In this document: positions 2,723 to 29,920 of the stretch, piece after piece | Layout of the letters: each line of letters begins with the position of its first letter | Position numbering within the stretch: position 1 is the stretch's first letter | Origin: Colwellia polaris | GTDB lineage: Archaea > Nanohalarchaeota > Nanosalinia > Nanosalinales > Nanosalinaceae | Length of the DNA stretch: 64,000 nucleotides | Direction of reading: 5' to 3' | Assembly: GCA_047617785.1 (NCBI GenBank) | Contig: JBLGBK010000001.1 | Coordinates: forward strand, 32,001-96,000 | Made by a program: the position numbers and the translations under genes | The notes under the pieces: generated by a model | What the model saw: the letters and a program-made list of their open reading frames with translations, nothing else | Database searches by the model: none | Told to the model about the DNA's origin: nothing

Positions 2723-2724
2723 AG

Positions 2725-3953: not shown

Positions 3954-3988
3954 AGTAAACAATTATCTAAACCCAAACATAAGCGTTG

Positions 3989-4144: not shown

Positions 4145-4151
4145 AACCAAA

Positions 4152-6523: not shown

Positions 6524-6566
6524 ATTAGTTTAGGCGTATCGTTCATATAAGGGGTTTTTGGTCAAA

Positions 6567-6710
6567 TTAACTGATAGCGCTATCAAGAGCTTGCTGATAT
6601 ATCTGCTCAACAACCCGATCTATGGCAAAAAGAAGAAGAGCGACAAAGGCAATAGCCACGCCGAACTTCACTAATTGATCTAAAGTAAATCCTGAGGAGC
6701 CCTTTCTCAC
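6567..6710 (-). CDS. Mini-pilin, 47 aa (not in ORF track)
   Basis: GTG overlaps the platform-gene stop (GTGA); MRKG|SSGFTLDQLVKFGVAIAFVALLLFAIDRVVEQIYQQALDSAIS. Confidence 0.7.
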   Translation of the reverse strand: MRKGSSGFTLDQLVKFGVAIAFVALLLFAIDRVVEQIYQQALDSAIS

Positions 6711-8879: not shown

Positions 8880-11144
8880 CTACACCTGCTGTTCCAGCCA
8901 TTCTTCCCATCTAGCCATTATCCTTTCTGTTTCTTGACCGCCATACTCCTTCCTGACATCTTCAGCGATGGTATGATATTTCTGATTTGCTTTTACAACG
9001 AACTCTGCCTCCAGTAATTCATCATTACCGGTTTCGTCGGCTTTGTCCGCAATCTTCTGTTTCATGTCCTTCCGCAGTTGTATATTGTCCCAAACAGCCT
9101 CCCAGTTATTCTTCCACTCACGTATATTAGAAGCAATACGGTTCAGAATCAAAGATTCCCCATTTAGAAGTGTATCTGTCGGCACAAGTTCATCCTTGTT
9201 GCTGTCGTAACGCATAAGTTCGACAAAGGCATTTTCCTCTTCTGGATCATCCGTCCAAGATTTTCGAACCTCTGTAATCCCTGTTACGCGTCTATAAGTC
9301 TCCAGTCCATCTGGACTGCGGATCTTATTAACGGAGACGATGATATCTGTAGCCTTAAATGACGTCTTTGGCACACCAAGATCGTTAACAACACGGTCAA
9401 ATACAGAGTAAGCGTCTTCTCCGTGAATTGTTCCGCCGACAAAGTTTGCTACTGCTCCTACACGCATAGCCTCGTAAAGTGCTTGAGCCTCATCTGAACG
9501 CACTTCTCCAATAACAAGCGCAGAATCTCCTAAACGCAGCGAGGTACGAATTGCTTCATCAGCTCCTAGCTCGCTTTCATTCTGGGTAATTACCGACTGC
9601 GACTTCATACGTTCAACATTGTATCCCAAATCCTTCATCTGCGGTATAGGAAGCTCCAATGTATCCTCCACCGTGACTATTCTATGGTTCTTCATAATTT
9701 CAAGCATGGAAGCTGACAGTATAGATGTTTTTCCAGCTCCACGTGTTCCAGCAAATAGTACAGACCTGTTTCCGTCCACTATGAAAGACAAAAGCGCTGC
9801 TCCGAGAGAGTTTATCATACCGTTGTTGACAAAAAGCGGTAGCGTCCATGCTCGGGAGCGGTGTCGCCTGAAAGCAAACGCTAACCCCTCAGGCGAGAGA
9901 CTCTCCTGAATTACCGCTACTCGTGCTCGTCCTCCTTCAACCTCGGTCTCAGTATCCAGTACCGGGTTGGCTTCGTCAAGCGGCCGACCTGACTGTATTC
10001 GGAACCGGGTTGCCCACGACTCCGCCTCATCTCTCGTAGGTATCAGATTGGTTTTGCACTCTTCATAGTCCTGATGGCTGATATACATCGGCGAGTCGCC
10101 GATAGGCGAGTTGATGTATACATCCTGAACTTTTGGATCTGATAGAAGTAGCTCAAGAACTCCAAGCCCGGAAGTATAACGGTTTAGGATGCTTGTTAGC
10201 TGTTCAAGCTCGTCTCTATCCAATTGGATGTTCATCTGTGCCGCGATGTCTCGAAGCATATCCTTACCAATATTCTCGAATACATCACGCATACGATCCG
10301 GTTGTGCGAACTCTCCAGATTCAGGTTTGTGCGACGCCATATAGCGCCGTGCAGCATCCAGTAGCTTGTATTTCTCCTCTGAAAGGTTAAATTCCGGAGG
10401 ATCAATATGGTAAACCGGTCGTGTTTTACCCGGCACCCTGTAAACCGTGACTTCTACATCGTTGTGTGCTTCGTATCGGTCAATTTCTTCCCCTTTTTCC
10501 GGAGGCAGACTCATAAACTTCGTAAGCATAAAGTTTGGCCGGACTAGCGGATGGAAGAACTCTCTGTATACGTCTCTGTCGCCTATATGGAATCCTGTTA
10601 TGTAATCCTGTGCCTGATCTATTATCTGGCATTCTTCCAGTCTTTGTCTTATTGGATTTATAACATCCTGCACGAAGTATTTATTGCATCGCTTCTGTTG
10701 CGGATATCCATCTTCCATTTTCTGTTTCATATGGCGCTCTTTTCTCTTCAGTTTGACGTAGGCGCCTACTGGGTCTCTTCTTAACTGATCTAGAACTATT
10801 TTCTGTACTTCAGGCAGTTCGGATTGGTATAGTTCGCTGCATTTGTTTCTTTGTATGTCTTGTGAAAGATATCCTTGGTTTGCGATGTCTTCTATTGCTT
10901 TCGATATTTCTCTGAGCAGTTCTATCTGTTCTTCGGTGTATTCGTAGTCTCTAGATTCTGATAGTACTACTGATCTTGCTCCCGGCACTTCTTCCAGTAT
11001 ATCTACTACTCTACCCATTACTTCAGGATAGTCTTCTATTGAGGCGCCGTATACTGATCCGAGAGTGTTTACTTCTACTGTGCCGCTTTCTTCGTCATAT
11101 TCGTAGTCGAAGATGTCTTTGTCTGAAGGTGGCATACCAAGCAT
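8880..11144 (-). CDS. Type IV pilus/secretion ATPase (PilB/ArlI/TadA, VirB11 family)
   Basis: Walker A GTRGAGKT, Asp box VEDTLEL, Walker B VIGEVR, GTIHG. Confidence 0.95.
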   Translation of the reverse strand: MLGMPPSDKDIFDYEYDEESGTVEVNTLGSVYGASIEDYPEVMGRVVDILEEVPGARSVVLSESRDYEYTEEQIELLREISKAIEDIANQGYLSQDIQRNKCSELYQSELPEVQKIVLDQLRRDPVGAYVKLKRKERHMKQKMEDGYPQQKRCNKYFVQDVINPIRQRLEECQIIDQAQDYITGFHIGDRDVYREFFHPLVRPNFMLTKFMSLPPEKGEEIDRYEAHNDVEVTVYRVPGKTRPVYHIDPPEFNLSEEKYKLLDAARRYMASHKPESGEFAQPDRMRDVFENIGKDMLRDIAAQMNIQLDRDELEQLTSILNRYTSGLGVLELLLSDPKVQDVYINSPIGDSPMYISHQDYEECKTNLIPTRDEAESWATRFRIQSGRPLDEANPVLDTETEVEGGRARVAVIQESLSPEGLAFAFRRHRSRAWTLPLFVNNGMINSLGAALLSFIVDGNRSVLFAGTRGAGKTSILSASMLEIMKNHRIVTVEDTLELPIPQMKDLGYNVERMKSQSVITQNESELGADEAIRTSLRLGDSALVIGEVRSDEAQALYEAMRVGAVANFVGGTIHGEDAYSVFDRVVNDLGVPKTSFKATDIIVSVNKIRSPDGLETYRRVTGITEVRKSWTDDPEEENAFVELMRYDSNKDELVPTDTLLNGESLILNRIASNIREWKNNWEAVWDNIQLRKDMKQKIADKADETGNDELLEAEFVVKANQKYHTIAEDVRKEYGGQETERIMARWEEWLEQQV

Positions 11145-11177: not shown

Positions 11178-11588
11178 ATGCCCGATCAAAACTTGATCAA
11201 TCAGTTAGTCACTCGAGTGAATGATTTTAACCGGCGGATGAGAGATCTTGAGGAGAAAATTCGGAACCTCACTGCACGTGTCAATACTCTAGATGACACA
11301 ATCATGAATAAGACGAAGACATTAAACACCGACTTGCAGGAGTTTGAAGACGATCTAAGCGAGGTCAGAGACCGTATAGCGAACCTAGAGGTTGATGTAA
11401 AAGAGATTAACCGTGAAAAGAGGAAATTTGTCAGTAAACAGGAATTAGAAGAAATGGAGAACTACATGGATCTAATGAACCCTGTAAACTCGAATTTTAC
11501 AACTGAAAAGCAGGTCGAGCAGAAGATAGATGATAAAGCACTCAATAAAGATGAAGTTGAATCTTTAATTGAAAAGAAATTGAATTAA
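11178..11588 (+). CDS. Coiled-coil protein divergent from pilus ATPase
   Basis: Heptad-rich 136 aa ORF. Confidence 0.75.
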   Translation: MPDQNLINQLVTRVNDFNRRMRDLEEKIRNLTARVNTLDDTIMNKTKTLNTDLQEFEDDLSEVRDRIANLEVDVKEINREKRKFVSKQELEEMENYMDLMNPVNSNFTTEKQVEQKIDDKALNKDEVESLIEKKLN

Positions 11589-11647: not shown

Positions 11648-12529
11648 ATGAAGTTTGAACTATTTGGACGCCTAGGAGATAACAACGGCCAGCAAGATCA
11701 AGAGGAAGGCGGAAATAACGGTTTTAATGCCGGATTCGGAGAAGAAGATTTCCAGACCGGTGGAGACTTAGACCGTACAGTTCAAAACATGTTTGATCAA
11801 GGTTATTCTGAAGACGAGATAAAAAGCGAGTTACAGGGACAATATGCCGAAAACGAGATAACTCAGTCGATTAATCGAGTGGTTACCTCATCGGCCACAG
11901 GAAACAACAATAGTAATGATGGACCTGAACCAATGACACCATATCAAGGAGATGAAGGCGCAGTAAGTCCTATGGACGAAGGCTACAGTCAAGACAAAAA
12001 CGAAAATGGAGGCGGCAATGAAATGAATAACATTAACCAGAACACCCAAAATGATAATATGATGCAAGAACAACAAAACCCTCAGCAGCCGCAACAACCC
12101 ACACAGCAAAGCGGTAGGCAGGGCCAAGGTAACTATAATGCGTCAGGAAATGTTGATCCTGCTGTAGAGGAGTTAATTGAAACAATTATTGCTGAAAACT
12201 TCGAGAAAGTTGAGGCAGAATTCCATAACGTCTACGATGAGCTTGACACGTTTGCAGAAGAGATTGAGGATTTAAAGCAACGTGTTCACGATCTTGAGGT
12301 TCGTGATGACGAAGATCAACAGCAGTTTGTACAGAAAATTGACGAAGTTGAAGAACATATCGATGAATATGAGTCCCGTATCGGCGGGCTGGAAAAAGCT
12401 TTCCAGCAAGTCCTACCGTCGCTAGTCGACAATGTCAGAGAGCTTACTGATCTTGTACAAGAACTGAAAGATGAAGGAGAAGTAAGTGAAGGCGACTTTG
12501 AAGATATGGACGTAGAAGATCTCCAGTAA
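11648..12529 (+). CDS. Acidic protein with N/Q-rich linker and C-terminal coiled coil
   Basis: 293 aa; GAGGT RBS; T-rich tract after stop. Confidence 0.75.
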   Translation: MKFELFGRLGDNNGQQDQEEGGNNGFNAGFGEEDFQTGGDLDRTVQNMFDQGYSEDEIKSELQGQYAENEITQSINRVVTSSATGNNNSNDGPEPMTPYQGDEGAVSPMDEGYSQDKNENGGGNEMNNINQNTQNDNMMQEQQNPQQPQQPTQQSGRQGQGNYNASGNVDPAVEELIETIIAENFEKVEAEFHNVYDELDTFAEEIEDLKQRVHDLEVRDDEDQQQFVQKIDEVEEHIDEYESRIGGLEKAFQQVLPSLVDNVRELTDLVQELKDEGEVSEGDFEDMDVEDLQ

Positions 12530-12598: not shown

Positions 12599-13117
12599 CT
12601 ATTCTTCTGAAGAAGATCTAGCTGTCAAAGCAACTACGCCTAGTATCAAACCGAGTACAAGAATAGGCATGACGAACTCTTCAAAGAATCGTTCCCAGTT
12701 CTCTATCTGAGGGATAAACTGGGATAGATCAAAGAAAGAGGCTATAATACTTAGAAGCGCTACTGAAAATATACCAGCTCCAAGAAGGAGCGGCATAGAT
12801 CTATCATTCTCCTGCAGCTTTTCAAGGTCGTAACCCGCAACTCCTAATACAATCATTAGCCCTATTACTGCAAAAATAGCAAAAGTTGTAGCTGCGACAA
12901 CATTAGTAAGCAGCCCTGCCGGTATGAAAAGATATGCGCCTCCTCCCGCCATAAAGGCTATTGCCAAGGATATAGAACCATTAACAAATTCGTCTTCGCT
13001 AATAAAATGGTATTTCTCAAGTACACCATAGCTCACAGCTAGAACAAGCAGCCATGGGAAGAAAAAGCGGAAAACCTGCATCTCTACCATCGACTGAATA
13101 ATCGATTCGAATGCCAT
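12599..13117 (-). CDS. Multi-pass membrane protein, paralog family member 1
   Basis: Start MAFESII; FFPWLLVLAVSYGVLEK..NGSISLAIAF. Confidence 0.75.
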   Translation of the reverse strand: MAFESIIQSMVEMQVFRFFFPWLLVLAVSYGVLEKYHFISEDEFVNGSISLAIAFMAGGGAYLFIPAGLLTNVVAATTFAIFAVIGLMIVLGVAGYDLEKLQENDRSMPLLLGAGIFSVALLSIIASFFDLSQFIPQIENWERFFEEFVMPILVLGLILGVVALTARSSSEE

Positions 13118-13118
13118 T

Positions 13119-13718
13119 TCACTCCCCTCCAACAGGTTGGAATAAATCGCTGAGTTTAGGTCCGCTACCTTCACCTGGATCACTTAATGTCCAGTATATT
13201 ATACCTGCTACAACTAGTATCCAGATCAAGCCAGAGTCAACCACGTAGGATATCATCTGTTGAATAGCCTGATTGTTTATGTTATCAGGTATAAACAGCT
13301 GTCCTCCTCCAGTTATGAAGAATGCTAGTATAACGATACCTGTTAATATTATGCCGTAAATTCCTTTGCCAGGATCATCTTTAGTTCCTACATCTAGACC
13401 TATAAATGCTAGTACTACAAGCAGACCGAGCAATCCTACAACAGTCAAAGCTATTGTGCCAAGATATTCAACAAAGAATTGCTGGTAAACAGGATTACTA
13501 ACTAGGAATTGCGCTACGAAGAACGCAAACACTACTGATAGTATAGCTGCGAAACGGTTATCATCTTCGTTTTCCTTGAAAAGAGGTATTCTCTTCAAGG
13601 TAAGAAAGAATAAAACATAGGTTACCACGAACGGCAGGAGACCTGAGAAGAATCCTTGTTCGCCCATTATTTGTAGAAGGTTGTTGAAGCCTCCTGTTGC
13701 CGCTTCGTGGCTGCTCAC
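13119..13718 (-). CDS. Multi-pass membrane protein, paralog family member 2
   Basis: LLPFVVTYVLFFLTLKR..NRFAAILSVVFAF. Confidence 0.75.
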   Translation of the reverse strand: MSSHEAATGGFNNLLQIMGEQGFFSGLLPFVVTYVLFFLTLKRIPLFKENEDDNRFAAILSVVFAFFVAQFLVSNPVYQQFFVEYLGTIALTVVGLLGLLVVLAFIGLDVGTKDDPGKGIYGIILTGIVILAFFITGGGQLFIPDNINNQAIQQMISYVVDSGLIWILVVAGIIYWTLSDPGEGSGPKLSDLFQPVGGE

Positions 13719-13723
13719 TTTAC

Positions 13724-13981
13724 TTATTCACCTTGCTGTTCTAGGTAGTGGCTTACTTTTCTGTTCATGAGCCATAGTTCTCTACCGATTATCATCAGTG
13801 CAAGCATTGTAATCCATGGCTGGATATCTCGTCCGAATGATACCAGTGTGTCTGCCTGTGATGAGTAGAGTGCAGTCCATAGTGCTGTTGCTATTGCACC
13901 TACTGACAGAATCACGATTACAAATTCGTCTAGTACATTTTCTACATTGTATAGGTAGTTTCGGAATCTTTCTAGATTCAT
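13724..13981 (-). CDS. Small 2-TM membrane protein
   Basis: 85 aa, two hydrophobic segments, tight operon spacing. Confidence 0.7.
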   Translation of the reverse strand: MNLERFRNYLYNVENVLDEFVIVILSVGAIATALWTALYSSQADTLVSFGRDIQPWITMLALMIIGRELWLMNRKVSHYLEQQGE

Positions 13982-13982
13982 T

Positions 13983-14120
13983 TTAGAAGCCTCCTCCCAT
14001 TCCCATGCTGTTCTTACGCATATTCATAACTTTTGCAATTACGAAACCGGCTGCCACTCCGATTAGAAGTACATCAGGATTGGCCATTGCGCCGCTCATT
14101 ATTTGTTCCATTAGTGCCAT
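13983..14120 (-). CDS. Small single-TM peptide, 45 aa (not in ORF track)
   Basis: Manual translation MALMEQIMSGAMANPDVLLIGVAAGFVIAKVMNMRKNSMGMGGGF; GAGGA RBS; stop 1 nt from next start. Confidence 0.7.
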   Translation of the reverse strand: MALMEQIMSGAMANPDVLLIGVAAGFVIAKVMNMRKNSMGMGGGF

Positions 14121-14171
14121 GGTTTTTCTTTTCCTCTAGTAATGCTGTTTATGTGCTCCTTGTTTAAATAA

Positions 14172-15215
14172 TTAAACCGGGGCTGCCTTTTGATTCATAG
14201 AACCCTCCATACCCGTAGAAGGCTTTTTCCCGGATTTGTTGGTCTGGGTAACTTCTAGATGAGAAGCATAGTCTTGATCGAGAGAATCATATTCAAAATT
14301 GTCTTTTGTTCTATAATGTATGTAATCGGCTATCTCTTCATTTATATCGATCTCAGTTGAATACTCTTCGTTTATTGCTGTACCCATATCCGAATTGACT
14401 TCTAATCCAACTATTTCCCCCTCGGAAGTCTTCATATAGTCAAATGCTGCTACTTCTAGTCCTTCCGTTGCATCTAGTGCGGCATCTATTTCGTAGTCAA
14501 ATATTTCCCCTGAATCTGTGTAATTTCCTCCGTTTGAGAGGTTATTCGCAAATCCTGCACCATTCTCTCTAGCTGCTATTTCTAGGACAGTTGCATCTTC
14601 TCCATCTCCTAGAACTATTGCCCTACAGTCCTTTACATCTTCATGGTCTATTGCCTCTTCTAATCTATAACTATCATTTTCTAGCTCTTCAATATAGGAT
14701 TCAAGATTGCTTTCTTCCTGAAGTTTTCTAACACCATTGCCACAGCAGTTACGAGAGGGCTTGGCAACTACCGCATTTTCTTCAATTATTTCGAATGCCT
14801 CTTCATCATTAAACTCTTGTGTCATTCGAACATTTTCATATTCCGAGAATTGTTGTTCTAAGTAGTCTGCAGTTCTGTTTTTGTCTTTATGATACCAAGA
14901 AACGTATGGATCTTGGATAAATCCTGTTTCCGTCTCATTTTCAATTCTCTTGAGATCTGCTACAGTTTTCTTTTGTTCTTCTTCATTCATGCCTGCAGTG
15001 AACATTTTATGCCTGTAGAAGACGGATTGGTCTTGCAGTTTATCAATTTCACCTGCAGATAGATCGGTTACTTTGAAGCCATCCTTATCTAGCTGGTTAA
15101 TTGTCTTTCTTCTTGTCGGCGTGTCTACCTGTCCAGCGTATAAAATGTCGGCATCTTCGGTATCGGTAGAAGACAGTATTCTATCAGACTTGCTTTGGAA
15201 CAACCAGCCAAACAT
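14172..15215 (-). CDS. RimK/LysX-like ATP-grasp peptide ligase
   Basis: KDK, VVAKP...GNGV, D.R..VLG, NNLSNGG, AFD...GLEVN ATP-grasp motifs. Confidence 0.75.
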   Translation of the reverse strand: MFGWLFQSKSDRILSSTDTEDADILYAGQVDTPTRRKTINQLDKDGFKVTDLSAGEIDKLQDQSVFYRHKMFTAGMNEEEQKKTVADLKRIENETETGFIQDPYVSWYHKDKNRTADYLEQQFSEYENVRMTQEFNDEEAFEIIEENAVVAKPSRNCCGNGVRKLQEESNLESYIEELENDSYRLEEAIDHEDVKDCRAIVLGDGEDATVLEIAARENGAGFANNLSNGGNYTDSGEIFDYEIDAALDATEGLEVAAFDYMKTSEGEIVGLEVNSDMGTAINEEYSTEIDINEEIADYIHYRTKDNFEYDSLDQDYASHLEVTQTNKSGKKPSTGMEGSMNQKAAPV

Positions 15216-15247
15216 AATTAGTTATTCGACAGTAAAAATTAAGTTGA

Positions 15248-16816
15248 TTATGAACCAAGAACTTCATCAACAGCATCAATCCCCTCATCTAATTTTTTCA
15301 GAATCTCTTCATCATCCTCAATCTTATGCTCTTCGGTCATTAACATGCCTTTAAGAATATTTACAGTATCATCTTTCACCGAATCAATACTATCTCGCAA
15401 ATTAGCTGAAGTAGTCAAGCCACCTACCTCGCTTGCAACCTCACTGCATATATCATCTATAAGATCGTCAACACTATCAGAGTTATTCTGAAGCATATCC
15501 ACCATATTTTGTATATCGCTAGGGTTCTCTATTGCCAACTCATGCTTAACTCTTCTCTTAGCTTCTTCCAAATTGTCCTTTATATCTTGTAGCTCGGATT
15601 TATCCTTCTGTAGGTGATTTTCCAAGTACTCTATGTGCTTATTCATAGTTCTGTGATGATCGAATAATTTACGATCCTCCACTTCCCTAGCAGCCTCTTT
15701 TATAACTTTTTCTTTGTCTTCTGCCTCCTCAACCTCTTTTAAAAGCTTCTTTAAGGCTTTTACAGACCTAACAATCTCTTTAGTATCAGCTATAAGACTA
15801 TTGAGCTCATCATCAAGCACAGCAACATCATGCTCATCCTTAGACTGTATTCTATCAGCAGCCGATCTTATTTCAGTTATATCGTGTAAAGCAGCTTTTA
15901 AACCGAAATTTTTGTACTTATCAGGTAAGTCTTTGCTTCCTAAGTCGGAGTTGCTATTCTGAAATAGATTCTGTCCATTAATCACATCGCCCTCAGTATA
16001 ACCAGAGCCCGTATTCGCTTTGTTGTAAAGTAGTTCTAGAGCATTTCGAAAGTTATTGATTCTTGCACCAACCTGTCTGTAACTGGCTGAACTGCCTCGC
16101 CCCGGATTATTTACCGCGTCTATAATAGCATTGATATCTGAATTAATATCTTGCTCAGACTGATGAATTGCCGGTTCGATATGACTGTAAGCACTTTCAA
16201 TATCGTCTACTGCCTCCTCCAAGTCTACTGCGTTTTTAGAGGCGTTACCCCCGTTACCGTTCCCGCCACCTCCTATATTATTTAGCTCTTGTCTTGCATC
16301 CTTTATCTCCTGTAGGCCCTGATTCAATGCTTTACCCGTCTTCCCAGTTGTCCAAGCCACTCCTGCTGCACCCCCTCCGAGAACAGAAATAAGAAGTGCT
16401 ATCACCCCAAAAACCAGGGCTACTACAAGAATCTGTTGGATATCCCAGATCAGTCCTAAAGGCTCTATCCAGTGGCCGGCCCCCATCATAGATATTATTA
16501 GGAGCAGTGATAGGACCGCAAGCAAGTTTCTTTTATTTTCAGCTTGACCTATGCCTCCAGATTCTAGATTGAACAGTTGTTGAAGATCAAACTTGACTAC
16601 TAGCTTCTTTAGAATCATGTAAACTGATACCCACAGAAGACCAAAAGTAGCTGCTATGCCGATATTATGCATTAAACTACCTGACTTAAGACCTACAAAA
16701 GAAATAATACCCTCAAATGAAGATAATGAAGTCTCTTGACCATGTGAAGCAGCGGTAAAAGACACCAAAAAATATGTCAGACCCGCAATTAAGGCAGATT
16801 TTAGTTTAGTTCTCAT
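15248..16816 (-). CDS. Membrane protein (family member 3) with long helical C-terminal domain
   Basis: Start MRTKLK; signal ending AASHG, TM core, Gly-rich hinge, ~350 aa coiled coil. Confidence 0.75.
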   Translation of the reverse strand: MRTKLKSALIAGLTYFLVSFTAASHGQETSLSSFEGIISFVGLKSGSLMHNIGIAATFGLLWVSVYMILKKLVVKFDLQQLFNLESGGIGQAENKRNLLAVLSLLLIISMMGAGHWIEPLGLIWDIQQILVVALVFGVIALLISVLGGGAAGVAWTTGKTGKALNQGLQEIKDARQELNNIGGGGNGNGGNASKNAVDLEEAVDDIESAYSHIEPAIHQSEQDINSDINAIIDAVNNPGRGSSASYRQVGARINNFRNALELLYNKANTGSGYTEGDVINGQNLFQNSNSDLGSKDLPDKYKNFGLKAALHDITEIRSAADRIQSKDEHDVAVLDDELNSLIADTKEIVRSVKALKKLLKEVEEAEDKEKVIKEAAREVEDRKLFDHHRTMNKHIEYLENHLQKDKSELQDIKDNLEEAKRRVKHELAIENPSDIQNMVDMLQNNSDSVDDLIDDICSEVASEVGGLTTSANLRDSIDSVKDDTVNILKGMLMTEEHKIEDDEEILKKLDEGIDAVDEVLGS

Positions 16817-16826
16817 AAATCTATCT

Positions 16827-17819
16827 TCAATTATTTTGTGCTGATTGAGATACCTTTTGCCACATTTCAGATAATTTGTTAATAGCCTCTTGCTCGCCCT
16901 GCTCTTCAAGAGTCTTAAACTTGATCATTTTCTCTAGTTGTTGATTTATAGATTTCATACCTTCTTCTAAAGTTTCTAACTCACCTACAATCTCTTCAGC
17001 TTCCTGGGATCGGTCAGTCTTACTTGCTCTTCCAGGTCCATCTGTTGATGTCTGTACACGTTCTTTTACAAGAGGTTCAAGCCGCTGTTTTATCTCTTTG
17101 AAAAGTTTCTTATCTTCAGTAAGATCTTCCTTCAGCTCTTGTATTTCCTCTTTATTCAACTGTGCTTCGTCATTTATAGCCGAGTCTACCTCTTGGAGTT
17201 CCTGAGCAAGTCTTTGCGCCTTATTGTCCATATTGCTGTAGTGCTCTTCTGCAGTACTCTCAGCACCATCTGCTTCTCTAAGTAGTCCAAGAACATCATC
17301 ATAACCTTCTTGCTGGGCTATAGTTCTCAGACCCTCCTCGATATTCCTTATCTTGTGAAGCTGATTCCTAAGTTGTGCCATAGACTGAAAAGTAGCATTA
17401 AGTTCAATTACGTCTTCAATAGCCTCCTCTACTTCAATCTCAACATCATACTGCTCCTCTTGAAAATTATCTTGAAAATCACTAAGAGCATTTGCAGCAT
17501 CACGTACTCTTTCAAGTTGGTCATGGAGATAGTTGAGGAGCTCATCTTGAGATCTGGATTGCGATTCTTTCTTTATGTCTTTGTTTATCGCTACAAAATC
17601 CTTATGTATCTCTTTAAGATCTCTTAACTCTTTATTTTCATCCTGCATAACTTGCTTGGCTGCTTGTTTTATTTCTTCAAGCCGTTCGATATCTTCTGTT
17701 ATCTCTTTTTCAATAAATTCTTCCATTTCTATATCTTTTTCCAAAGCTTGTTCTAATGATTCTGCCGCCTCATAAAGCTGCTGATGGATTTTCTCTCTAT
17801 TGGGATTATCTTCTGACAT
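16827..17819 (-). CDS. Acidic all-helical coiled-coil protein
   Basis: Start MSEDNPN; no TM; E/Q/K/L heptads. Confidence 0.75.
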   Translation of the reverse strand: MSEDNPNREKIHQQLYEAAESLEQALEKDIEMEEFIEKEITEDIERLEEIKQAAKQVMQDENKELRDLKEIHKDFVAINKDIKKESQSRSQDELLNYLHDQLERVRDAANALSDFQDNFQEEQYDVEIEVEEAIEDVIELNATFQSMAQLRNQLHKIRNIEEGLRTIAQQEGYDDVLGLLREADGAESTAEEHYSNMDNKAQRLAQELQEVDSAINDEAQLNKEEIQELKEDLTEDKKLFKEIKQRLEPLVKERVQTSTDGPGRASKTDRSQEAEEIVGELETLEEGMKSINQQLEKMIKFKTLEEQGEQEAINKLSEMWQKVSQSAQNN

Positions 17820-17827
17820 TATAACAC

Positions 17828-18565
17828 CTAAAGACTGTTTGAACAACCACTGCCATTACACGTTTTAGCACTCTGTGGATTTAATTTATAACAATTTGAA
17901 CACACTTTAAAGCCTAAGCTATTAGCTGCGCTCGCATATTTATTGCCTGCTTGATTTACATATTTATTGGCACCAAAAACGCTTTTTGCACTACTAGCAT
18001 ATTTTTTAGCTCCGTTGACTCCACGCTTAGCAGCACTAGATACTCCTGCTTTGTCTAGACCATCTTTAGCTTTTCCTCCGCCCCATGCAAGAGCCTTTCC
18101 GGAGGCACCCACGGAGGCTAAAACTCCTGCGCTACCGCCTCCGACGACAGCTATAACAAGTGCAACTATTCCAAACACTAGTGCTAGTAAGAGAACCTGT
18201 TGAATAGTCAGTAGGACGTTGAAGTATGTATGTGCGCCCGTCATCATGACTATCACAATTAAGAGAGATAGTATTGCCCCAAGGTTTCTACTACTTCCTC
18301 CACTGCTTCCTATTGTGCTGCTACTTCCGCCCATGTTGAACAGGCTTTGCAAGCCAAACTTGTTTACCAGCTTCTTTATAATTAGATAAACTGCGAACCA
18401 CATCAGACCGAAAGCTGAGGCAGACGCTACTAGTTGACGCCAATTTTCAGTAGGGAGCGGTATCTGTGTGAGAAGACCGAATAGACCTCCTGATTCGCCA
18501 TGAGATGCAGTTGCTATAGAAGTGAAGGAGATAAGAAGAGAGGTTAAAATGGTTTTTTTGTTCAT
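17828..18565 (-). CDS. Membrane protein (family member 4) with C-terminal zinc ribbon
   Basis: Signal ending ATASHG; clear similarity to 15248-16816 N-terminus; CSNC...C....C tail. Confidence 0.75.
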   Translation of the reverse strand: MNKKTILTSLLISFTSIATASHGESGGLFGLLTQIPLPTENWRQLVASASAFGLMWFAVYLIIKKLVNKFGLQSLFNMGGSSSTIGSSGGSSRNLGAILSLLIVIVMMTGAHTYFNVLLTIQQVLLLALVFGIVALVIAVVGGGSAGVLASVGASGKALAWGGGKAKDGLDKAGVSSAAKRGVNGAKKYASSAKSVFGANKYVNQAGNKYASAANSLGFKVCSNCYKLNPQSAKTCNGSGCSNSL

Positions 18566-18602
18566 GCAGTAGTTAATCAGCTCCTTCTTTAAATTAATTT
18601 AC

Positions 18603-19055
18603 CTAAAATACTGCTTTCACGATCATATAGACAACTACTAGCCCTGCACCAATGAATAGTATATATGTCAGCCCTCCAAATACGATGAAAATCAATTCGT
18701 TTATATCCTGGAAAAGCTTCGTAGGAACTAGCATCAATGTCACGGTCAAAGCTATAAGCGTCGCGTACTTGTTTCGCTGTTTCCTTTTAGCCTTTTTATC
18801 CTGAGCCCATTCATCATCAGGGCTTAAAGCAAATTTTAGCGCCTGCTTTAGTCCTATCTGGAAGATGAAAAATATTAGTAGAAACGGAGCAACTAGCTCT
18901 GTAAGCAGCTCAACATTCGATTCATAGTGAGGTATCTGAAAATTCTCATACGGATTGTCAGTTCCTGTCGAGCCATGAAAAGATGCTGCTGCTCCAGAAA
19001 CCATCAACATCAGGAATATGAGACTATAGAAGGCTTTAGAAGTCAAAGTCGTCAT
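18603..19055 (-). CDS. Membrane protein (family member 5)
   Basis: Start MTTLTSK; signal ending AAASFHG; VAPFLLIFFIFQIGLK..NKYATLIAL. Confidence 0.7.
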   Translation of the reverse strand: MTTLTSKAFYSLIFLMLMVSGAAASFHGSTGTDNPYENFQIPHYESNVELLTELVAPFLLIFFIFQIGLKQALKFALSPDDEWAQDKKAKRKQRNKYATLIALTVTLMLVPTKLFQDINELIFIVFGGLTYILFIGAGLVVVYMIVKAVF

Positions 19056-19302
19056 CTCCCATGTCACCTCCCATATCAGCATCCATACCGCCACCGCCGC
19101 TTCTGATATGTTGGAGATACGTAGGAAGCATCTCATCAATAATAAATCCTGCAAGCAAACCAGTAGCGGCTGCAACCGCATATTCTCCTGCAAATGGCTG
19201 TAATCCAACCATCTTTGCAAATGACTCTCCCGTCACGCTAGCAGCAGCTAGTCCGGATGCGGCGGAAGCGGGGAAGGCTAAGAATTTCCAGGGATCGTTC
19301 AT
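19036..19302 (-). CDS. Small Ala/Gly-rich membrane protein with acidic tail
   Basis: 88 aa; TGLLAGFII helix; GGGGMDADMGGDMGDDDFDF tail. Confidence 0.7.
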   Translation of the reverse strand: MNDPWKFLAFPASAASGLAAASVTGESFAKMVGLQPFAGEYAVAAATGLLAGFIIDEMLPTYLQHIRSGGGGMDADMGGDMGDDDFDF

Positions 19303-19386
19303 GTAGTACTATTCCCTTAACATAAATTTAAATATAAATTATCGACAGGTCTTCAAAGAAGAGATAAAGGAAACATGTAGGACTGC

Positions 19387-19929
19387 TTACTGAGGTGATT
19401 GCGTACCCTTCAACAGTTTCTTTATTGAGACCAAAGTTTGATCTGCTTGACTTTGGTGCTCATCTACTTGCTGAATAATCTTGGCAGTCTCCTGCATATC
19501 ATTTTCAGCGATTTTCTCATGCTCAATCTCTCCTTTAATACGTTTCTCAATATCAGAAATCTCGTTTTCTAGACTTTCAGCTTCTGATAATGCAGAATCA
19601 AGGTCCTCTCGCAGCCTATTTATCTCCTGCTGAACCTGATCATTATTATTTCCTCTCAAATCGTCCCATAGACTCTTAGACTGTTGTTGAGCTTTCTTCT
19701 CCTTTAAATCAGAAACTATCTCGCCAATTTCCTTTTCTTTCGCCTTTAAATCCTCAAGTTTTTGCTCGGCGTCTTCGGCTTCCTCAACAACTGTGTGATC
19801 CATCTGTATAGTCTTCTTCATCTCCTCGATTTCTTCCTTGGAGTCCTTTATAATCTGCTCTAATTCTTTTTTCTCTTCATTTTCTCTTCCTATTGCCGAA
19901 TTAATCGTACCCATAACATCTCGATCCAT
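19387..19929 (-). CDS. Acidic coiled-coil protein
   Basis: 180 aa heptad-rich; GAGGT RBS. Confidence 0.75.
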   Translation of the reverse strand: MDRDVMGTINSAIGRENEEKKELEQIIKDSKEEIEEMKKTIQMDHTVVEEAEDAEQKLEDLKAKEKEIGEIVSDLKEKKAQQQSKSLWDDLRGNNNDQVQQEINRLREDLDSALSEAESLENEISDIEKRIKGEIEHEKIAENDMQETAKIIQQVDEHQSQADQTLVSIKKLLKGTQSPQ

Positions 19930-19982: not shown

Positions 19983-20219
19983 TCAAGAATTACGAAATTT
20001 TCCAAGTCTTTCTAGCGTTTCCAGAATACCCCATGCGTAGATTACCGATTCCCATGCACGTATATAGTCTTCTTCCTCAAGAAAGTGAGAGGTATCATCA
20101 CGGTAGGCGAGGACATTCTCCATCTGTTCTACATCTTTATCTCTGTCTTCAAGCCTACCTTCAAGGCGTTCCAACCATTTCTCTGTTTCTTGTTTAAGCT
20201 TTTCCTGTGTCTTGTTCAT
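19983..20219 (-). CDS. DUF357 family protein
   Basis: AYRDDTSHFLEEEDYIRAWESVIYAWGILE; usual neighbour of dph5. Confidence 0.85.
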   Translation of the reverse strand: MNKTQEKLKQETEKWLERLEGRLEDRDKDVEQMENVLAYRDDTSHFLEEEDYIRAWESVIYAWGILETLERLGKFRNS

Positions 20220-20914
20220 CGGAAGTCTTCCAAGTTTTCTTCTTCGACGTGCGAGGTTTCGCCTATTATTATAATTGAATGAGGAGGTTCACCGGAAGCA
20301 GAAAGTTCTCCAAGTTCTCCGACCTGAACCGATTGACTGTCAAGATTAGAGCGCTCAAAGAAAACAGCTTCAGCCTTTTCTAAGTCAGAGTCCATCTCGA
20401 TCAGTTTCTCCGCCGCTTCATCAGCAGAGTAATCGATATCAAGCAGAACCAGCGTGTGAAGCCCTATTGAATCGTTCTTCTCGATATAATCAGTTATAGA
20501 GCCTGGTTTCATGTTTTTAGGAAGAGTAACTGTTCTTCCAAACTTGTATATACTGAGGCCTGTTTCAGCAATACCTGTGAAGATTGACGGCGCGTGCACT
20601 ACATTTGTTTCCAACCCCTGTTTTTCTGCACGTCTTTTGATATCAAAGTGTGTTGTGGCGGTTAATGCATCGCCGGAAACTAGGAAGGCTGTTTCTTGTT
20701 CTTTCGCTGATTCAACTATTTTGTCTTCTTGCTCCACTTGCTCACGTGTAAGCTTCTCAATCTCTTTACCCTTCTTTTCTTCGATCTTTTGCAAATCTAC
20801 TGTCTCCGTGTTAGTATAGAACTCTGCAAATACTTTTTCTGAGTTTTCTATAGCATTCAGTCCTTTTACAGTTATTTCATCGTTGTCAAGCCCTAGGCCT
20901 ATGAGGTGGAGCAT
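20216..20914 (-). CDS. dph5: Diphthine synthase
   Basis: LIGLGL, AEFYT, LVSGDALTATTH, YKFGRTVT, GLHTLVLLD. Confidence 0.95.
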   Translation of the reverse strand: MLHLIGLGLDNDEITVKGLNAIENSEKVFAEFYTNTETVDLQKIEEKKGKEIEKLTREQVEQEDKIVESAKEQETAFLVSGDALTATTHFDIKRRAEKQGLETNVVHAPSIFTGIAETGLSIYKFGRTVTLPKNMKPGSITDYIEKNDSIGLHTLVLLDIDYSADEAAEKLIEMDSDLEKAEAVFFERSNLDSQSVQVGELGELSASGEPPHSIIIIGETSHVEEENLEDFR

Positions 20915-20974
20915 TATAGATTTAATCAGTTATGTAACTGTTTTTAATTAGTTGGAGCGAAGAGGTTTTACACA

Positions 20975-21994
20975 TTGAACCAGGAAAAAATTGAGGAAAA
21001 AGCAGCAGGACTTTTCGAAAGACAAGGATTCGAAGTCGAAAAGAGCAGTAATAGGTTCAGCGCTGTAAAAGATAAAAACAAATTAGAGTTTCAGGTTTTC
21101 TCCTCAGAAAAATACAGAATAGAAGATGTTGAAGAGAAGGCGGAGGATGTAAACACCGTTTTCGTTGATGAGGAATTGAAGGATATCGATGTTGAAGGTA
21201 AAGTATCAGTTCTGAAAGATGAAGAAAATAGTAAAGATTACGATCTGCCTAGTTTCGAGTTAATCGGCGATATAGCGGTTATAAACGATCTTGATGGGCG
21301 GGAGGAGAAAGACGTTGTTGAAGGTATCAAGGAGAATCACCCTCATATTGAAACTATGCTTCTTAAGGAGGAACAACTTTCTGGAGAGTTCCGTGTAGGA
21401 GAGTACAGAAAACTTTACGGAGAGAGTACAGAAACAGTGCATACCGAGTTCGGAGTTGATATCAAGGTCGATCCGACAAAAACATATTATTCAGAGCGTT
21501 TCTCAACGGAGAGAAGACGTGTAGCTAAGCAGATAGGGTCAGGAGATAAGGTTCTTGTAATGTTTGCTGGCGTCGGACCGTTCGCATTGATCGCTGCAAA
21601 ACATTCAGAAGCAGAAAAAATAGTTGCAGTTGAGAAAAATCCTGAAGCCTGCGAATACCTGAAAGAAAACATAGAGTTAAACAACTATGAGAGCAGGATA
21701 GAAGGCTATTGCGGAGATGTAGAGAATATTCTGCCAGAATTGAATAAGAAGTTCGATCATATAGTAATGCCTCTACCAGGAAAGGCCAATGAATTCCTAA
21801 AGATAGCAGAAAAAGCTGCCTCAGAAAATGCAACGATACATTACTATCGTTTCATGGAAGAAGATAGAGAGGAACAGCTAAGAGCAGAGATCAGCGATAT
21901 CCTGGATAGAGGTTTCAGCATCAAGGGAATCGTGGAATGTGGTGAGAAAAGTCCTTCTACCAAAAGAGTTTGTGTCGATATAGAACTCGAATAG
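20975..21994 (+). CDS. trm5: tRNA (guanine37-N1)-methyltransferase, Trm5/Met-10 family
   Basis: FELIGDIA, GEFRV, YYSERFSTER, MFAGVGPF, EKNPEA, VMPLP. Confidence 0.85.
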   Translation: MNQEKIEEKAAGLFERQGFEVEKSSNRFSAVKDKNKLEFQVFSSEKYRIEDVEEKAEDVNTVFVDEELKDIDVEGKVSVLKDEENSKDYDLPSFELIGDIAVINDLDGREEKDVVEGIKENHPHIETMLLKEEQLSGEFRVGEYRKLYGESTETVHTEFGVDIKVDPTKTYYSERFSTERRRVAKQIGSGDKVLVMFAGVGPFALIAAKHSEAEKIVAVEKNPEACEYLKENIELNNYESRIEGYCGDVENILPELNKKFDHIVMPLPGKANEFLKIAEKAASENATIHYYRFMEEDREEQLRAEISDILDRGFSIKGIVECGEKSPSTKRVCVDIELE

Positions 21995-22042
21995 AAATAA
22001 AAAGCTTGGCTCAAATAGTTGTTATCAAGAGGTAATTACAAA

Positions 22043-22618
22043 ATGGCAACTAGACGCGAGATTCTAGCCGGAGTAGGTTTGGCAGTCGGCGGAGGAACAG
22101 TGGCTCTTGCAGGCGATCACGTAGCAGAAAATTACAAGTTACAAGACCCAATTGACATAGACCTAAGATCTCCATTAACAAAGAAGCGAGATAATGGAAA
22201 AACCCCTGTAGATAACCACTCTGATTTTGAAGGTGGTGATCCACCAAGTAACGTCGAAGATGGCGACAACAATGGTAACGGGGAGCGCTACGAAGACGAC
22301 GACAGCGACTCTACTCCATGGTTCGAGACGTATGACGTAGGGGACTTCACAGAAGACCTGTATAACGAATCTGATTATTCAGTTGCAGTCACAAACGACT
22401 TCCTGCTTGATGCCTACGAAGAAGGAGGCGAAGAAATATACAGAGCATTAGTCGAAGATGACGAACTAAAAGTAAATGACAGTGGCCCAGCGCACCTCTA
22501 CAACGACACTCCCGGACTAGGATACTCCGAAGATTTTGGAGGCAAAGTAGAGACGCTAAGCAGAGAGGACGAATTAGAAGAGCTTCTCGAAGACTACGTC
22601 GAAGAAGAATTAGGATAA
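22043..22618 (+). CDS. Acidic exported protein with twin-arginine-like signal
   Basis: MATRREILAGVGLAVGGGTVALAG; GAGGT RBS before ATG 22043. Confidence 0.7.
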   Translation: MATRREILAGVGLAVGGGTVALAGDHVAENYKLQDPIDIDLRSPLTKKRDNGKTPVDNHSDFEGGDPPSNVEDGDNNGNGERYEDDDSDSTPWFETYDVGDFTEDLYNESDYSVAVTNDFLLDAYEEGGEEIYRALVEDDELKVNDSGPAHLYNDTPGLGYSEDFGGKVETLSREDELEELLEDYVEEELG

Positions 22619-22730
22619 ATTCTTCTGCACCACAAACATATTTTTACTACATTTTCTTTCCTTAATTTCTAGCCACTATAGACAACGAATATAAAATTTA
22701 GAGCCTGTTATTAGACTTGAGTGATAAATA

Positions 22731-23738
22731 ATGCCACTAGGTAGATTGATTTTTGGGCAAGGCGGATTAATTGCTATGGACAAAGCCGGGAAAGCTGCCG
22801 AAAGACTTGCAGAATATCTTGAAGACGAACAGTATGATTCTGTCAGAGTGGATAGACACACAATTGATAGACCTGGCTCTTCCGAGGAAGACTATAGCGA
22901 AACCAATCTAATACCTAAAGAAACATATGATACTGTTTTCATACCCGAAGGACAGGAGCCAGGTTTAGTTCCTGTAGAAAACTATACTATTTTTAGTCAA
23001 AACCCTGAAGAAAACAATAAAGGAGGTGACAATATCATGACAGAACTTGAAAGCGACTATTTCCAAGAACGTGGAGCATCCGCAGTAGAAGCAATAGAAG
23101 GCGACTCCGCAGACGATTACAGCGATGAAGAACTTGAAGCATACGGTGTTGCTCTAGATCTCTGGCTAGCAGAGAACGGACAAATTGAAGAAGTTTCAGA
23201 CGGAGACCTTGCAGCTTACGCTCAAGATCAAGGGCTTCTGACAGAAGTAATGGCTGCCAAAGAAACATATCAAGACCATCTCAACCTCGATGGAGCATAT
23301 GAAGAGCTCCTAGATCAGACGGAAGAACGAACAGGAGACGCTGGACACGCAGTAATCGAAGTACAGCAGCTAGAGTACTTTGTTGACCGTATGTCCGAAG
23401 GAACAGAAAGAGTAGCACAGGCTCACGAAGAAACAGAACCAACCTATGAGCTACTACGAGAAACTCTCTCAAGCGGTGCAGACACTATCGACACAGCTGT
23501 TGACCGACTACTATCCGCAGGAGAATCCAAAGGAGTAGACATGGGTCGACCAGAAGATTTAGAAACAGACATAGAGTATCTTCAGATCCTAAACCAGTCA
23601 ATTGACGATGCTGAAGAAGAACTAGAGAACAGACAGGAAGATGGAGAAGATATAGATTTTGAAAGACTCAGACGGCTCGAGGAGCGAACACAAGACAGAA
23701 AAGGAATGGGAGAATCTCTAGATCGACTTGAAGATTAA
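22731..23738 (+). CDS. Acidic helical hypothetical protein (strong internal start at 23037)
   Basis: 335 aa ORF; GGAGGTGA RBS before in-frame ATG 23037. Confidence 0.7.
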   Translation: MPLGRLIFGQGGLIAMDKAGKAAERLAEYLEDEQYDSVRVDRHTIDRPGSSEEDYSETNLIPKETYDTVFIPEGQEPGLVPVENYTIFSQNPEENNKGGDNIMTELESDYFQERGASAVEAIEGDSADDYSDEELEAYGVALDLWLAENGQIEEVSDGDLAAYAQDQGLLTEVMAAKETYQDHLNLDGAYEELLDQTEERTGDAGHAVIEVQQLEYFVDRMSEGTERVAQAHEETEPTYELLRETLSSGADTIDTAVDRLLSAGESKGVDMGRPEDLETDIEYLQILNQSIDDAEEELENRQEDGEDIDFERLRRLEERTQDRKGMGESLDRLED

Positions 23739-23839
23739 AAACCAGTTCTGCTCCTTTTTCTCTATATTTTTTACAAAACATTGTACCGGGAAAAATACCC
23801 ACACAAAAATAATTTAACTTTTACTACTCATGAATAACT

Positions 23840-24493
23840 ATGAGCTCTGACAATTCAGATCCTATAGACGACTTATATGACGAGACTGTAGATCAGACAG
23901 AAGAACGTGAGAGCTTAGCAGGAAGACTTCTTGAGAGATATAAAGGATACAGAGAAGGACTCTCCGAAGGCGGCATTAGCATCCAACAGACAGGTCTCAT
24001 AAATATTGCTCGAATAGGAGACGATAGAGAAGAAACAACAGAAAGTCAAGAAGAAACTGGAGAGACACCAACCCGAAGAGACTTTATGAACGGCGTCAAA
24101 AAGACAGGTCTTTTACTTGCAGGCGGTGCAGCAGCCGGAGGAGCCGGAGCAGCAGTATGGGAGGCTTTTGACGAGGACGAAGACACAATATATAATATAG
24201 TCAACAACTACGAAGACGGAGAAGATTCTCCTCCACCATTATACACAGAGTCCTTAGACTACAGAAGCGAACTTGTAGTAGAACAGTTCTTCCAAGATAA
24301 TGAGGGCGCTCTAGGAAGAGAACTCACTCCCGGAGATATAGAAATTGGAGAGAACTATTTCGAAGGAGATTTCGAGAACGGTGAAAGGCTAAATTATGAA
24401 GAAGAGAACAGCTTCAACGAAGAAGAAGTCAAATACATGAATTCTATTGAAGATGAAGAGGATTTAGAGCACGCATTCAACCCACTTTTCTAG
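23840..24493 (+). CDS. Acidic protein with internal twin-arginine-like motif and TM
   Basis: TRRDFMNGVKKTGLLLAGGAAAGGAGAAVW at ~aa 78. Confidence 0.7.
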   Translation: MSSDNSDPIDDLYDETVDQTEERESLAGRLLERYKGYREGLSEGGISIQQTGLINIARIGDDREETTESQEETGETPTRRDFMNGVKKTGLLLAGGAAAGGAGAAVWEAFDEDEDTIYNIVNNYEDGEDSPPPLYTESLDYRSELVVEQFFQDNEGALGRELTPGDIEIGENYFEGDFENGERLNYEEENSFNEEEVKYMNSIEDEEDLEHAFNPLF

Positions 24494-24577
24494 AGTTTTT
24501 ACTCACGAGTAACAAAAGGTATTTAAAGGTTGGCGCTCCAGTTAGTACTACAATACTACAACAGGTGAATAACTAAA

Positions 24578-29832: not shown

Positions 29833-29835
29833 AAT

Positions 29836-29860: not shown

Positions 29861-29920
29861 GTTAAATTTTTTCACTACTACAAATTGATATAAAAGATTT
29901 ACTCGATGTGTTATTAACAC

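Follow-up and report, generated by a model that had tools for sequence, protein, structure and literature searches.

Eleven co-oriented genes at positions 12599–19929 of a 64,000-nucleotide stretch of a nanohaloarchaeal genome (contig C1 positions 32001–96000; the window hereafter) are read here, with moderate confidence, as an accessory module, specific to its lineage, of the type IV pilus-like machine (type IV filament machine) of DPANN archaea. The genes are real, five of their products are paralogs, their order is conserved, and their linkage to pilus genes extends across two phyla. The genome amounts to 787 kb at a completeness of 96.5% and its proteome is markedly acidic; database relatives of the cluster proteins are labelled Nanohaloarchaea (DPANN).

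Genes of the cluster

All of the eleven genes that the original prediction had counted from the sequence of the window are present as tightly spaced minus-strand open reading frames (ORFs) running in one direction, with gaps of −20 to 84 nt between them; D and C, as well as B and A, are spaced by 1 nt. Gene starts were picked to agree with the ortholog alignments. Beginning with the first gene of the operon, the cluster consists of:

K, 19387–19929, minus strand: 180 amino acids (aa), acidic soluble coiled coil without transmembrane (TM) segment or signal peptide, first gene of the operon
J, 19036–19302, minus strand: 88 aa, small hydrophobic TM protein with a Gly-rich acidic C-terminal tail (...DDFDF)
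I, 18603–19055, minus strand: 150 aa, signal peptide and three TM helices
H, 17828–18565, minus strand: 245 aa, signal peptide and three TM helices, ending in a short basic tail that resembles a zinc ribbon
G, 16827–17819, minus strand: 330 aa, acidic coiled coil without signal peptide
F, 15248–16816, minus strand: 522 aa, signal peptide and three TM helices; the coiled-coil tail of ~340 residues is predicted to lie in the cytoplasm
E, 14172–15215, minus strand: 347 aa, RimK/LysX-type ATP-grasp ligase
D, 13983–14120, minus strand: 45 aa, single TM segment and basic patch; the C-terminal tail is of GMGGGF type and predicted to lie inside the cell
C, 13724–13981, minus strand: 85 aa, two-TM hairpin with R-E-L-W invariant in helix 2, C-terminus ...GE
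B, 13119–13718, minus strand: 199 aa, five TM helices, member of the DPANN-wide A/B family (alignment A1)
A, 12599–13117, minus strand: 172 aa, five-TM paralog of B (alignment A8), starting 1 nt past the B stop codon

Three tiny TM proteins (C, D and J) and two acidic coiled coils without signal peptide (G at 16827 and K at 19387) had likewise been anticipated and are found. No named family had been recognized in the cluster, and indeed, apart from chance-level matches, Pfam and NCBIfam offer no family at E ≤ 0.1 for ten of the eleven genes (A, B, C, D, F, G, H, I, J and K), J having no match in either database; E matches the RimK family below the cut-off. Nor does any cluster protein match a curated type IV pilus or archaellum accessory family of Pfam or NCBIfam. 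Among the smaller products, the DPWKY motif at the N-terminus and the acidic tail are conserved in the 23 aligned orthologs of J, whose helix 2 has an invariant D-E, and the alignment of C (A6) contains the invariant positions E14, N15, E19, L25, S26, W56, M63, I65, R67, E68, L69 and W70. We found 26 orthologs of D. The K protein has a same-genus ortholog (1.9e-74 by phmmer) and, by the same search, weaker matches to coiled coils of ~160 aa in loci L047 (7.9e-6), L034 (0.003) and L031 (0.013).

A three-helix unit shared by five membrane proteins

The membrane proteins A, B, I, F and H are connected transitively (A/B – I – F/H) by one three-helix unit, in which TM1 with a conserved Pro-Phe is followed by a basic cytoplasmic loop and then by a TM2-TM3 hairpin. 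Pairwise BLAST among the cluster proteins detected a sole link, between F and H (3.2e-32, 42.5% identity over 167 aa). We gathered 45 related loci, built ortholog alignments from them and compared the resulting profiles by hhalign; the iterated profile of I also caught a few small coiled-coil proteins and long H-type proteins, which were removed by length and TM filters before the comparison. The ortholog profiles of A and B matched each other at 99.5% (E 1.3e-22), those of I and the N-terminal domain of H at 95.1% (E 3.1e-8, 72 columns spanning the signal peptide and TM1), and those of B and I at 80.9% (E 1.3e-5). An A/B profile made of 135 sequences matched I at 91.9% (E 7.1e-7), along 79 columns over TM1–TM3. 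Negative controls with 28 DUF2070 proteins and 30 PilC proteins gave 0.2–1.4%. The paralogy claimed for the five proteins thus survives profile comparison; the two-helix signature by which it had been noticed is real at this level, in a transitive manner, although its literal motif fits loosely.

The I protein represents the minimal form of the common three-helix module. In its alignment (A5), the P-F in TM1 is invariant and an outward-facing YDSQxE motif is conserved. A weak profile link (55.9% by hhalign) was found between D and J.

DUF2070 (PF09843) was rejected as the identity of the A/B family. Five of 13 distant A/B relatives weakly match the Pfam model (1.5e-4 to 0.07, under the cut-off), the A, B and A4 profiles reached 0.3–0.9% by hhalign when compared with 28 nanohaloarchaeal DUF2070 proteins, and a true DUF2070 gene is located elsewhere in the genome. 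A class III signal peptide in A/B was rejected as well, since an aspartate often precedes the hydrophobic helix in nanohaloarchaea and the proteins have five TM helices.

Adjacent type IV filament machinery

The cluster had been placed directly beside type IV pilus machinery, and so it lies: an ATPase with a Pfam T2SSE match and a platform protein with a T2SSF match adjoin it, together with two coiled-coil proteins (CCP1 and CCP2) and a run of pilin-like genes. Starting from the side of A, these neighbours are:

CCP2 (cc293), 11648–12529, plus strand: acidic cytoplasmic coiled coil, obligate neighbour of A/B
CCP1 (cc136), 11178–11588, plus strand: small coiled coil with only generic coiled-coil matches
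Assembly/secretion ATPase of CpaF/ArlI/GspE type, 8880–11144, minus strand: 754 aa with a long N-terminal extension
PilC/TadC-type membrane platform, 6707–8872, minus strand: Pfam T2SSF at 1.7e-6, 28.5 bits (cut-off 25.2)
About 11 pilin-like genes, 383–6710, minus strand: 47–748 aa, short basic leaders (MRKG/RKAQ-type) followed by a hydrophobic helix

The ATPase belongs to the T2SSE/VirB11 family, matching T2SSE at 6.3e-17 (61.7 bits, cut-off 24.9), and its closest PDB sequences are GspE (2oap), CpaF and FlaI; against the NCBIfam FlaI/ArlI equivalog NF058587 it scores 140.4 bits, below the cut-off of 550. The pilin-like genes were judged by eye from their translations, which carry class III-type signal peptides with leaders ending in G, A or Q. 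Together with a prepilin peptidase on contig C5 of the genome (Peptidase_A24, 33.4 bits, cut-off 26.5), the ATPase, the platform and the ~11 pilin-like genes would make up a complete type IV filament kit adjoining the cluster. As to the coiled-coil neighbour of A/B, 26 of 30 CCP2 members match Pfam FlaC_arch (PF05377) at E ≤ 0.01 (best 1.5e-6), a hint at an archaellum-like scaffold.

Several of the pilin-like genes are tiny (47–75 aa; 6335–6710 and 3567–4150, minus strand), comprising barely a signal peptide and a hydrophobic helix, and large ones of 408 and 748 aa lie beside them. The orthologs of the ATPase are interrupted near query residues ~491–496 in at least 12 genomes, with open frames of 1125–2013 aa. 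In locus L063 (4680–8462, minus strand), the insert contains the Intein_splicing (1.4e-26) and LAGLIDADG_3 (1.1e-11) domains, which mark it as an intein with a homing endonuclease.

Conserved gene order and distribution

The phylum was sampled with the 70 species genomes of the collection. Gene content was counted in 41 loci anchored on an ortholog of the ATPase, 31 of them of family f1; five loci taken around H-like matches (L024, L025 and L027–L029) were left out of this count. Among the family-f1 loci, both A and B were found in 30, C in 28, D in 26, H in 23 (plus three long forms labelled I), I in 23 and J in 23, and orthologs of F, 500–950 aa in length, in 23–26; most absences represent loci cut by contig ends. 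The order of the genes is invariable in this family: PilC<ATPase<cc136>cc293><A<B<C<D<(E)<H<I<J. Across the anchored loci, CCP1 and CCP2 are each present in 36/41. Families f4 and f5 retain both coiled-coil genes and two or three A/B paralogs, and their loci also hold neighbours of 275–289 aa that are weakly matched by the I profile (5.6e-4 and 0.057). On the scale of whole genomes, the ATPase ortholog occurs in 70/70 members of the phylum (55–95% identity) and the A/B family in 59/70, or in 27/28 of the high-quality genomes.

A full HMMER scan of 1.84 billion representatives with the A/B profile yielded 2001 clusters at E ≤ 1e-3, of which 592 reach E ≤ 1e-10. The taxon-labelled matches belong to Nanohaloarchaea, Aenigmatarchaeota, Nanoarchaeota, Woesearchaeota and Pacearchaeota, with one row labelled Paceibacteria; all but this one are DPANN, in line with the predicted restriction of the family. 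In the ESM Atlas, where all scores were <0.9, the unnamed clusters are labelled Woesearchaeota, Aenigmatarchaeota or Nanobdellota and serve as leads only. Fused (longer) forms of the A/B family were absent from 7999 candidates, which is weak evidence.

The second phylum was sampled through 22 loci found with non-halophilic A/B relatives, 11 of them titled Aenigmatarchaeota. At least two tandem A/B paralogs are present in 18/22 of these loci. Where at least 9 kb of upstream flank was available (n = 9), CCP2 is present in all nine loci and the ATPase ortholog in seven (E ≤ 1e-230). The genes are arranged as PilC<ATPase<CCP1>CCP2>A>A>B>, and the core that recurs in the Aenigmatarchaeota-type contigs comprises the ATPase, PilC, the two coiled-coil proteins and three to five A/B paralogs. 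The linkage to type IV pilus-type genes is thus borne out across two phyla; the clustering is conserved, and among the taxon-labelled matches A/B did not turn out to be a housekeeping family of free-living archaea.

In genomes G010, G011 and G001, the ATPase/PilC pair is found on another contig and the CCP1-CCP2-A-B block is intact. In G010 and G001, whose neighbouring ORFs were read, the block borders on a series of genes having pilin-type N-termini; the gene map of G011 is the same. The block therefore follows pilus genes through rearrangements, and this is the strongest argument for a functional link.

Genus g18 (L024, L025 and L027) has extra F/H-type genes (254–790 aa) in a second cluster away from the ATPase locus, suggesting that the three-helix family has expanded beyond the pilus locus in this genus. 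Farther along the window, several acidic ORFs without any family (22019–25933) lie ahead of two big predicted surface proteins (1273 and 585 aa; 26011–31678, plus strand) that contain CarboxypepD_reg, PEGA, PKD and Ig-like domains.

Predicted topology and structure models

Topology was predicted by charge, from column-wise counts of lysine plus arginine (K+R) over the family alignments (positive-inside). In I, the outward N-terminus has a count of 0.5 and loop 1 one of 6.0; for F/H, the counts are 0.2 in the outward N-terminus, 3.7 in loop 1 and 4.5 after TM3, that is, in the tail. The B family shows 0.2 at the N-terminus, 2.1, 0.4, 1.4 and 0.4 in loops 1–4 and 1.6 at the C-terminus, D has 0.2 ahead of the TM segment and 4.2 behind it, and the values for C are 2.2, 0.7 and 3.0. 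On these counts, A and B are predicted to be N-out/C-in five-helix proteins, and the coiled-coil tails of F/H are placed inside the cell. The tails of D and J and the odd-numbered loops are likewise predicted to be cytoplasmic, and the outward parts of A, B, I, F and H would consist only of N-termini of 20–35 residues.

Confident, all-helical AlphaFold2 (AF2) models were obtained for B, which has a predicted local distance difference test (pLDDT) score of 81.5, and for I, which has four helices (pLDDT 80.1). Foldseek against the PDB gave 0 matches at E ≤ 0.001 for both models. With an exhaustive aligner (VIA), the best Z values were 7.7 for B and 7.4 for I, on helical hairpins of 57–59 residues and under the stated helical noise level. 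The same hairpin chains head both lists (9h6w_A, 8kgk_A, 3vr8_C, 6cc4_A and 4hyc_A), which would fit a shared TM1-TM2 hairpin, though such hairpins are generic. Searched by sequence against the PDB, the A/B and I profiles reached best E-values of 0.048 and 0.52, respectively, which is chance level. A complex prediction for B plus A scored 0.01 (mark 0.32) and was taken as evidence neither way.

A split F-type gene

The neighbouring genes H and G are two halves of a split second F-type gene, with G as its detached cytoplasmic tail. Two sister species (G044 and G045) carry two F-type genes of ~530 aa where this genome has H then G. The H protein aligns with residues 1–191 of the 529-aa ortholog from locus L020 (H529; 9e-55), and G is colinear with residues 208–529 of the same protein (21.5% over 339 aa, E 2e-21 with composition statistics off). 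One of the two signal-less coiled coils, that at 16827, is therefore the detached cytoplasmic tail of a membrane protein.

A frameshift or an assembly error was rejected as the source of the split: no alternative open frame exists in the H tail, and the H/G junction is identical, without indels, in contigs of three runs (X2, X14 and X16), of which X2 is possibly the source sample. Within the cluster, F and H evolve fastest, with a within-genus identity of 38–47% vs 95% for the ATPase. The C-terminal ~75 residues of H (17828–18050, minus strand) are Lys/Ala-rich and basic and carry a CxxC...CxxxxC zinc-ribbon-like motif in place of the ancestral acidic coiled coil. This tail has a weak match to NCBIfam L40e (0.0077), and such a basic stretch is odd within an acidic proteome.

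The RimK-type ligase and conserved C-termini

The ATP-grasp ligase claimed for the cluster is E, which is of RimK/LysX type with scores below the family cut-offs. It matches the NCBIfam RimK family TIGR00768 at 3.3e-14 (52.9 bits vs a cut-off of 143.4, with 190 residues of the core aligned), LysX at 1.2e-6 over the ATP-grasp core and under the curated cut-off, and the Pfam families ATP-grasp_3/4 weakly (E 0.013–0.048). RimK/LysX enzymes extend or load C-terminal Glu residues of small proteins. The likeness of E to these tail ligases lies in the match to the ATP-grasp core, whereas it differs from them in its sub-cut-off scores and in being present in only 9 of the 41 anchored loci, a distribution that makes it an optional member of the cluster.

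Several products of the locus have conserved C-termini. The C protein ends in GE in 21/28 sequences and in E in 23/28; D has a GMGGGF-like end with F last in 12/26; J ends in GG..DDFDF; and CCP2 ends in W in 19/36. The position of the ligase adjoining C and D suggests tail ligation. It should be noted that the GE end of C is retained even in loci without the ligase.

Proposed role of the module

We infer from gene content and neighbourhood that the module assembles physically with the pilus motor and serves it as a scaffold. It would comprise (i) a polytopic set based on one three-helix unit, including A and B (five TM helices), I (three TM helices) and F and H (three TM helices and a long tail); (ii) the mini membrane proteins C, D and J; and (iii) the cytoplasmic coiled coils, namely the F tail, G, K and the neighbouring CCP1 and CCP2. 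These parts would form a membrane-embedded collar and a cytoplasmic scaffold round the PilC platform and the hexameric ATPase, the scaffold being functionally comparable to ArlX or ArlC/D/E of the archaellum. The adjacent pilin-like genes would supply the subunits of the filament, and the RimK-type ligase would act as an optional modifier.

The archaellum scaffold (ArlX in Crenarchaeota, ArlC/D/E in Euryarchaeota) would share with the present locus the arrangement of coiled coils round an ArlI/ArlJ-type pair, ArlX being membrane-anchored. With a TM anchor followed by a cytoplasmic coiled coil, F and H have the layout of ArlX, and CCP2 weakly matches FlaC_arch and ArlX. The locus differs from the archaellum in that no Arl family is matched at threshold; ArlH, ArlF/G and archaellins were not searched for in it.

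Several observations weigh against an accessory module of the pilus machine. The link to the motor rests on gene neighbourhood, and the C, D, I and J profiles gave no detection outside Nanohaloarchaeota in the loci searched. Direct hhalign comparison of A/B with H was not significant (1.5–8.2%; 5.7% in the correct register with the 135-sequence profile), so that the five paralogs are joined only transitively. The CCP2 of the window itself scores 17.7 bits against PF05377 (cut-off 27.8), a weak coiled-coil match; DUF7310, a haloarchaeal coiled-coil model, is matched by 22/30 CCP2 members (best 2.5e-5) with the window protein below the cut-off, which again is weak evidence. The AF2 folds of B and I matched no solved component of a type IV filament machine. 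Bacterial labels are attached to database row P0229 ("Paceibacteria") and to the contig title of L065 ("bacterium"), probably through mis-binning. Finally, the genes next to the module in both phyla include DUF357, diphthine synthase (Dph5) and Trm5/Tyw2 (window 19983–21994; L020–L049 and L065–L086), and since these housekeeping genes are also kept beside the block, part of the synteny could reflect inherited order and not functional coupling. Synteny so deep between phyla is itself unusual for the housekeeping genes DUF357, Dph5 and Trm5/Tyw2.

Alternative explanations

Inherited gene order is central to the alternative that survives best, which we consider unlikely without dismissing it. Here, the cluster would encode an autonomous membrane or membrane-skeleton complex (for envelope organisation, membrane shaping or transport) that uses the two coiled-coil proteins and is independent of the pilus motor, the adjacency being a legacy of small, slowly rearranging genomes. 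Consistent with this, the tightest linkage is that of cc136/cc293 with A/B, which is kept when the ATPase and PilC are elsewhere; the unrelated DUF357, Dph5 and Trm5 stay beside the block in two phyla; a lone A/B homolog lies away from any pilus gene in three Aenigmatarchaeota-type loci (L078, L080 and L081); and no known pilus-machine family or fold was matched. Such a complex accounts less well for the relocated blocks of G010 and G001, which are directly beside pilin-like runs (G011 has the same map), for the ATPase being adjacent in 7/9 Aenigmatarchaeota-type loci with enough flank, and for the resemblance of CCP2 to the FlaC-type coiled coils of the archaellum.

The original prediction had interpreted the paralogs as a hetero-oligomeric membrane channel and the coiled coils as an extracellular tube, needle or translocon by which the cell would connect with, or inject into, its host. 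This model draws on the restriction to DPANN and the linkage to pili, both of which hold; attachment organelles with a 7-nm tube into the host have been seen in another DPANN archaeon (PMC11104419), and F and H, at 38–47% identity within the genus vs 95% for the ATPase, are the fastest-evolving proteins. We nevertheless regard the model as highly improbable, because charge places the coiled coils inside the cell. The F/H tails follow an odd number of TM helices past a cleaved signal peptide, are K/R-flanked and are predicted to be cytoplasmic; G and K have no signal peptides, and G is the detached tail of an F/H-type protein. The exposed parts of A, B, I, F and H amount to only ~20–35 residues, and dedicated pilin-like genes are present as the likelier filament subunits. 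Among the matches of the B and I models, where a pore or translocon fold had been looked for, no pore-former, translocator or ESCRT-III fold appeared.

Least credible of all is an ion-driven stator-like motor of the 5:2 MotAB/ExbBD/ZorAB type coupled to the pilus machine, with the three-helix proteins as outer subunits (F with a ZorA-like long tail) and the small TM proteins C, J and D as the axle. The topology of ExbB/TolQ is N-out, TM1, cytoplasmic loop, TM2-TM3 hairpin and cytoplasmic tail, and the predicted topology of I, F and H agrees with it; charged intramembrane residues (R-E invariant in C helix 2, D-E invariant in J) and the long cytoplasmic coiled-coil tail of F also fit, but Pfam MotA_ExbB (PF01618) has no match in the whole genome at E ≤ 10 and none among the cluster proteins, the TM1-TM2 loop is only ~25–30 residues long, D lacks an invariant acidic TM residue, and no ExbB, MotA or TolQ chain is among the fold matches listed for B and I, which are generic hairpins and weigh little either way.

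Relation to described loci

An accessory module of the pilus machine would extend loci that are in part already described. According to the main text of Hamm et al. 2024 (PMC11291902), cluster-2 DPANN, including Nanohaloarchaeota, Aenigmarchaeota and other lineages, share two conserved loci of type IV pilus-like character in which CpaF and TadC are accompanied by coiled-coil proteins, the latter detected by proteomics. Having an ATPase, TadC and one or two coiled coils in common with these loci, the locus studied here is apparently of the same type and probably corresponds to their locus 2. That main text names CpaF, TadC, coiled coils and FlaF/PilA (locus 1), and leaves the A/B, C/D/J and I/F/H families and the ligase unmentioned. 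It likens the coiled-coil proteins to the viral attachment protein sigma-1, whereas the CCP2 studied here looks more like intracellular FlaC-type proteins.

The main text of Makarova, Koonin and Albers 2016 (PMC4858521) describes the type IV pilus systems of the halobacterial/nanoarchaeal clade 4F, which have the intracellular coiled-coil protein arCOG07564 as a partner, and reports the clade 4F ATPase also from nanoarchaea, where cognate pilins were not found. The secretion ATPase, TadC and a coiled-coil partner are common to clade 4F and the present locus, and CCP2 gives DUF7310 matches. In contrast to the nanoarchaea of that paper, the present locus has pilin-like genes adjacent to it, and the paper describes no five-TM or three-TM accessory families. 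We found no description of the membrane paralogs in the literature searched: the main texts of PMC11291902 and PMC4858521 are silent on membrane families, and the pilus and ATPase terms looked for in the text of PMC11420986 were not present. The notion of an undescribed DPANN apparatus thus stands for the membrane module, which was not found in print, and falls for the ATPase/TadC/coiled-coil core, which is already published according to the main text of PMC11291902.

Implications for host contact in DPANN archaea

The three-helix module unites a DPANN-wide five-TM family with nanohaloarchaeal signal-peptide forms. Cultivated DPANN archaea require physical contact with a host. In another DPANN archaeon, cryo-tomography has revealed an attachment organelle made up of cone, portal, barrier and 7-nm tube, the molecular identity of which is unknown according to the authors (PMC11104419). 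A pilus-type motor in every genome of the phylum that was searched, with the same block beside it in a second phylum and the same membrane and coiled-coil proteins as its constant companions, is the most obvious candidate for such an attachment organelle.

We would go one step further only tentatively and with low confidence, in proposing that the module, the ATPase, the platform and the pilins are together the components of the organelle by which DPANN archaea attach to hosts. The membrane collar, portal or "barrier" at its base may then be formed by the three-helix proteins (A, B, I, F and H) together with C, D and J, an inner cage by the cytoplasmic coiled coils, and the ~7-nm tube into the host by the pilins, so that a pilus machine would have been rebuilt as an intercellular conduit.

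Should the module prove to work apart from the pilus, what would remain is a membrane-skeleton system specific to DPANN archaea. The analysis yields a predicted topology, with the coiled coils inside the cell, concrete targets for tagging, cross-linking and subtomogram fitting in cultivated nanohaloarchaea, and a parts list with coordinates that is a candidate for the host contact of DPANN archaea.

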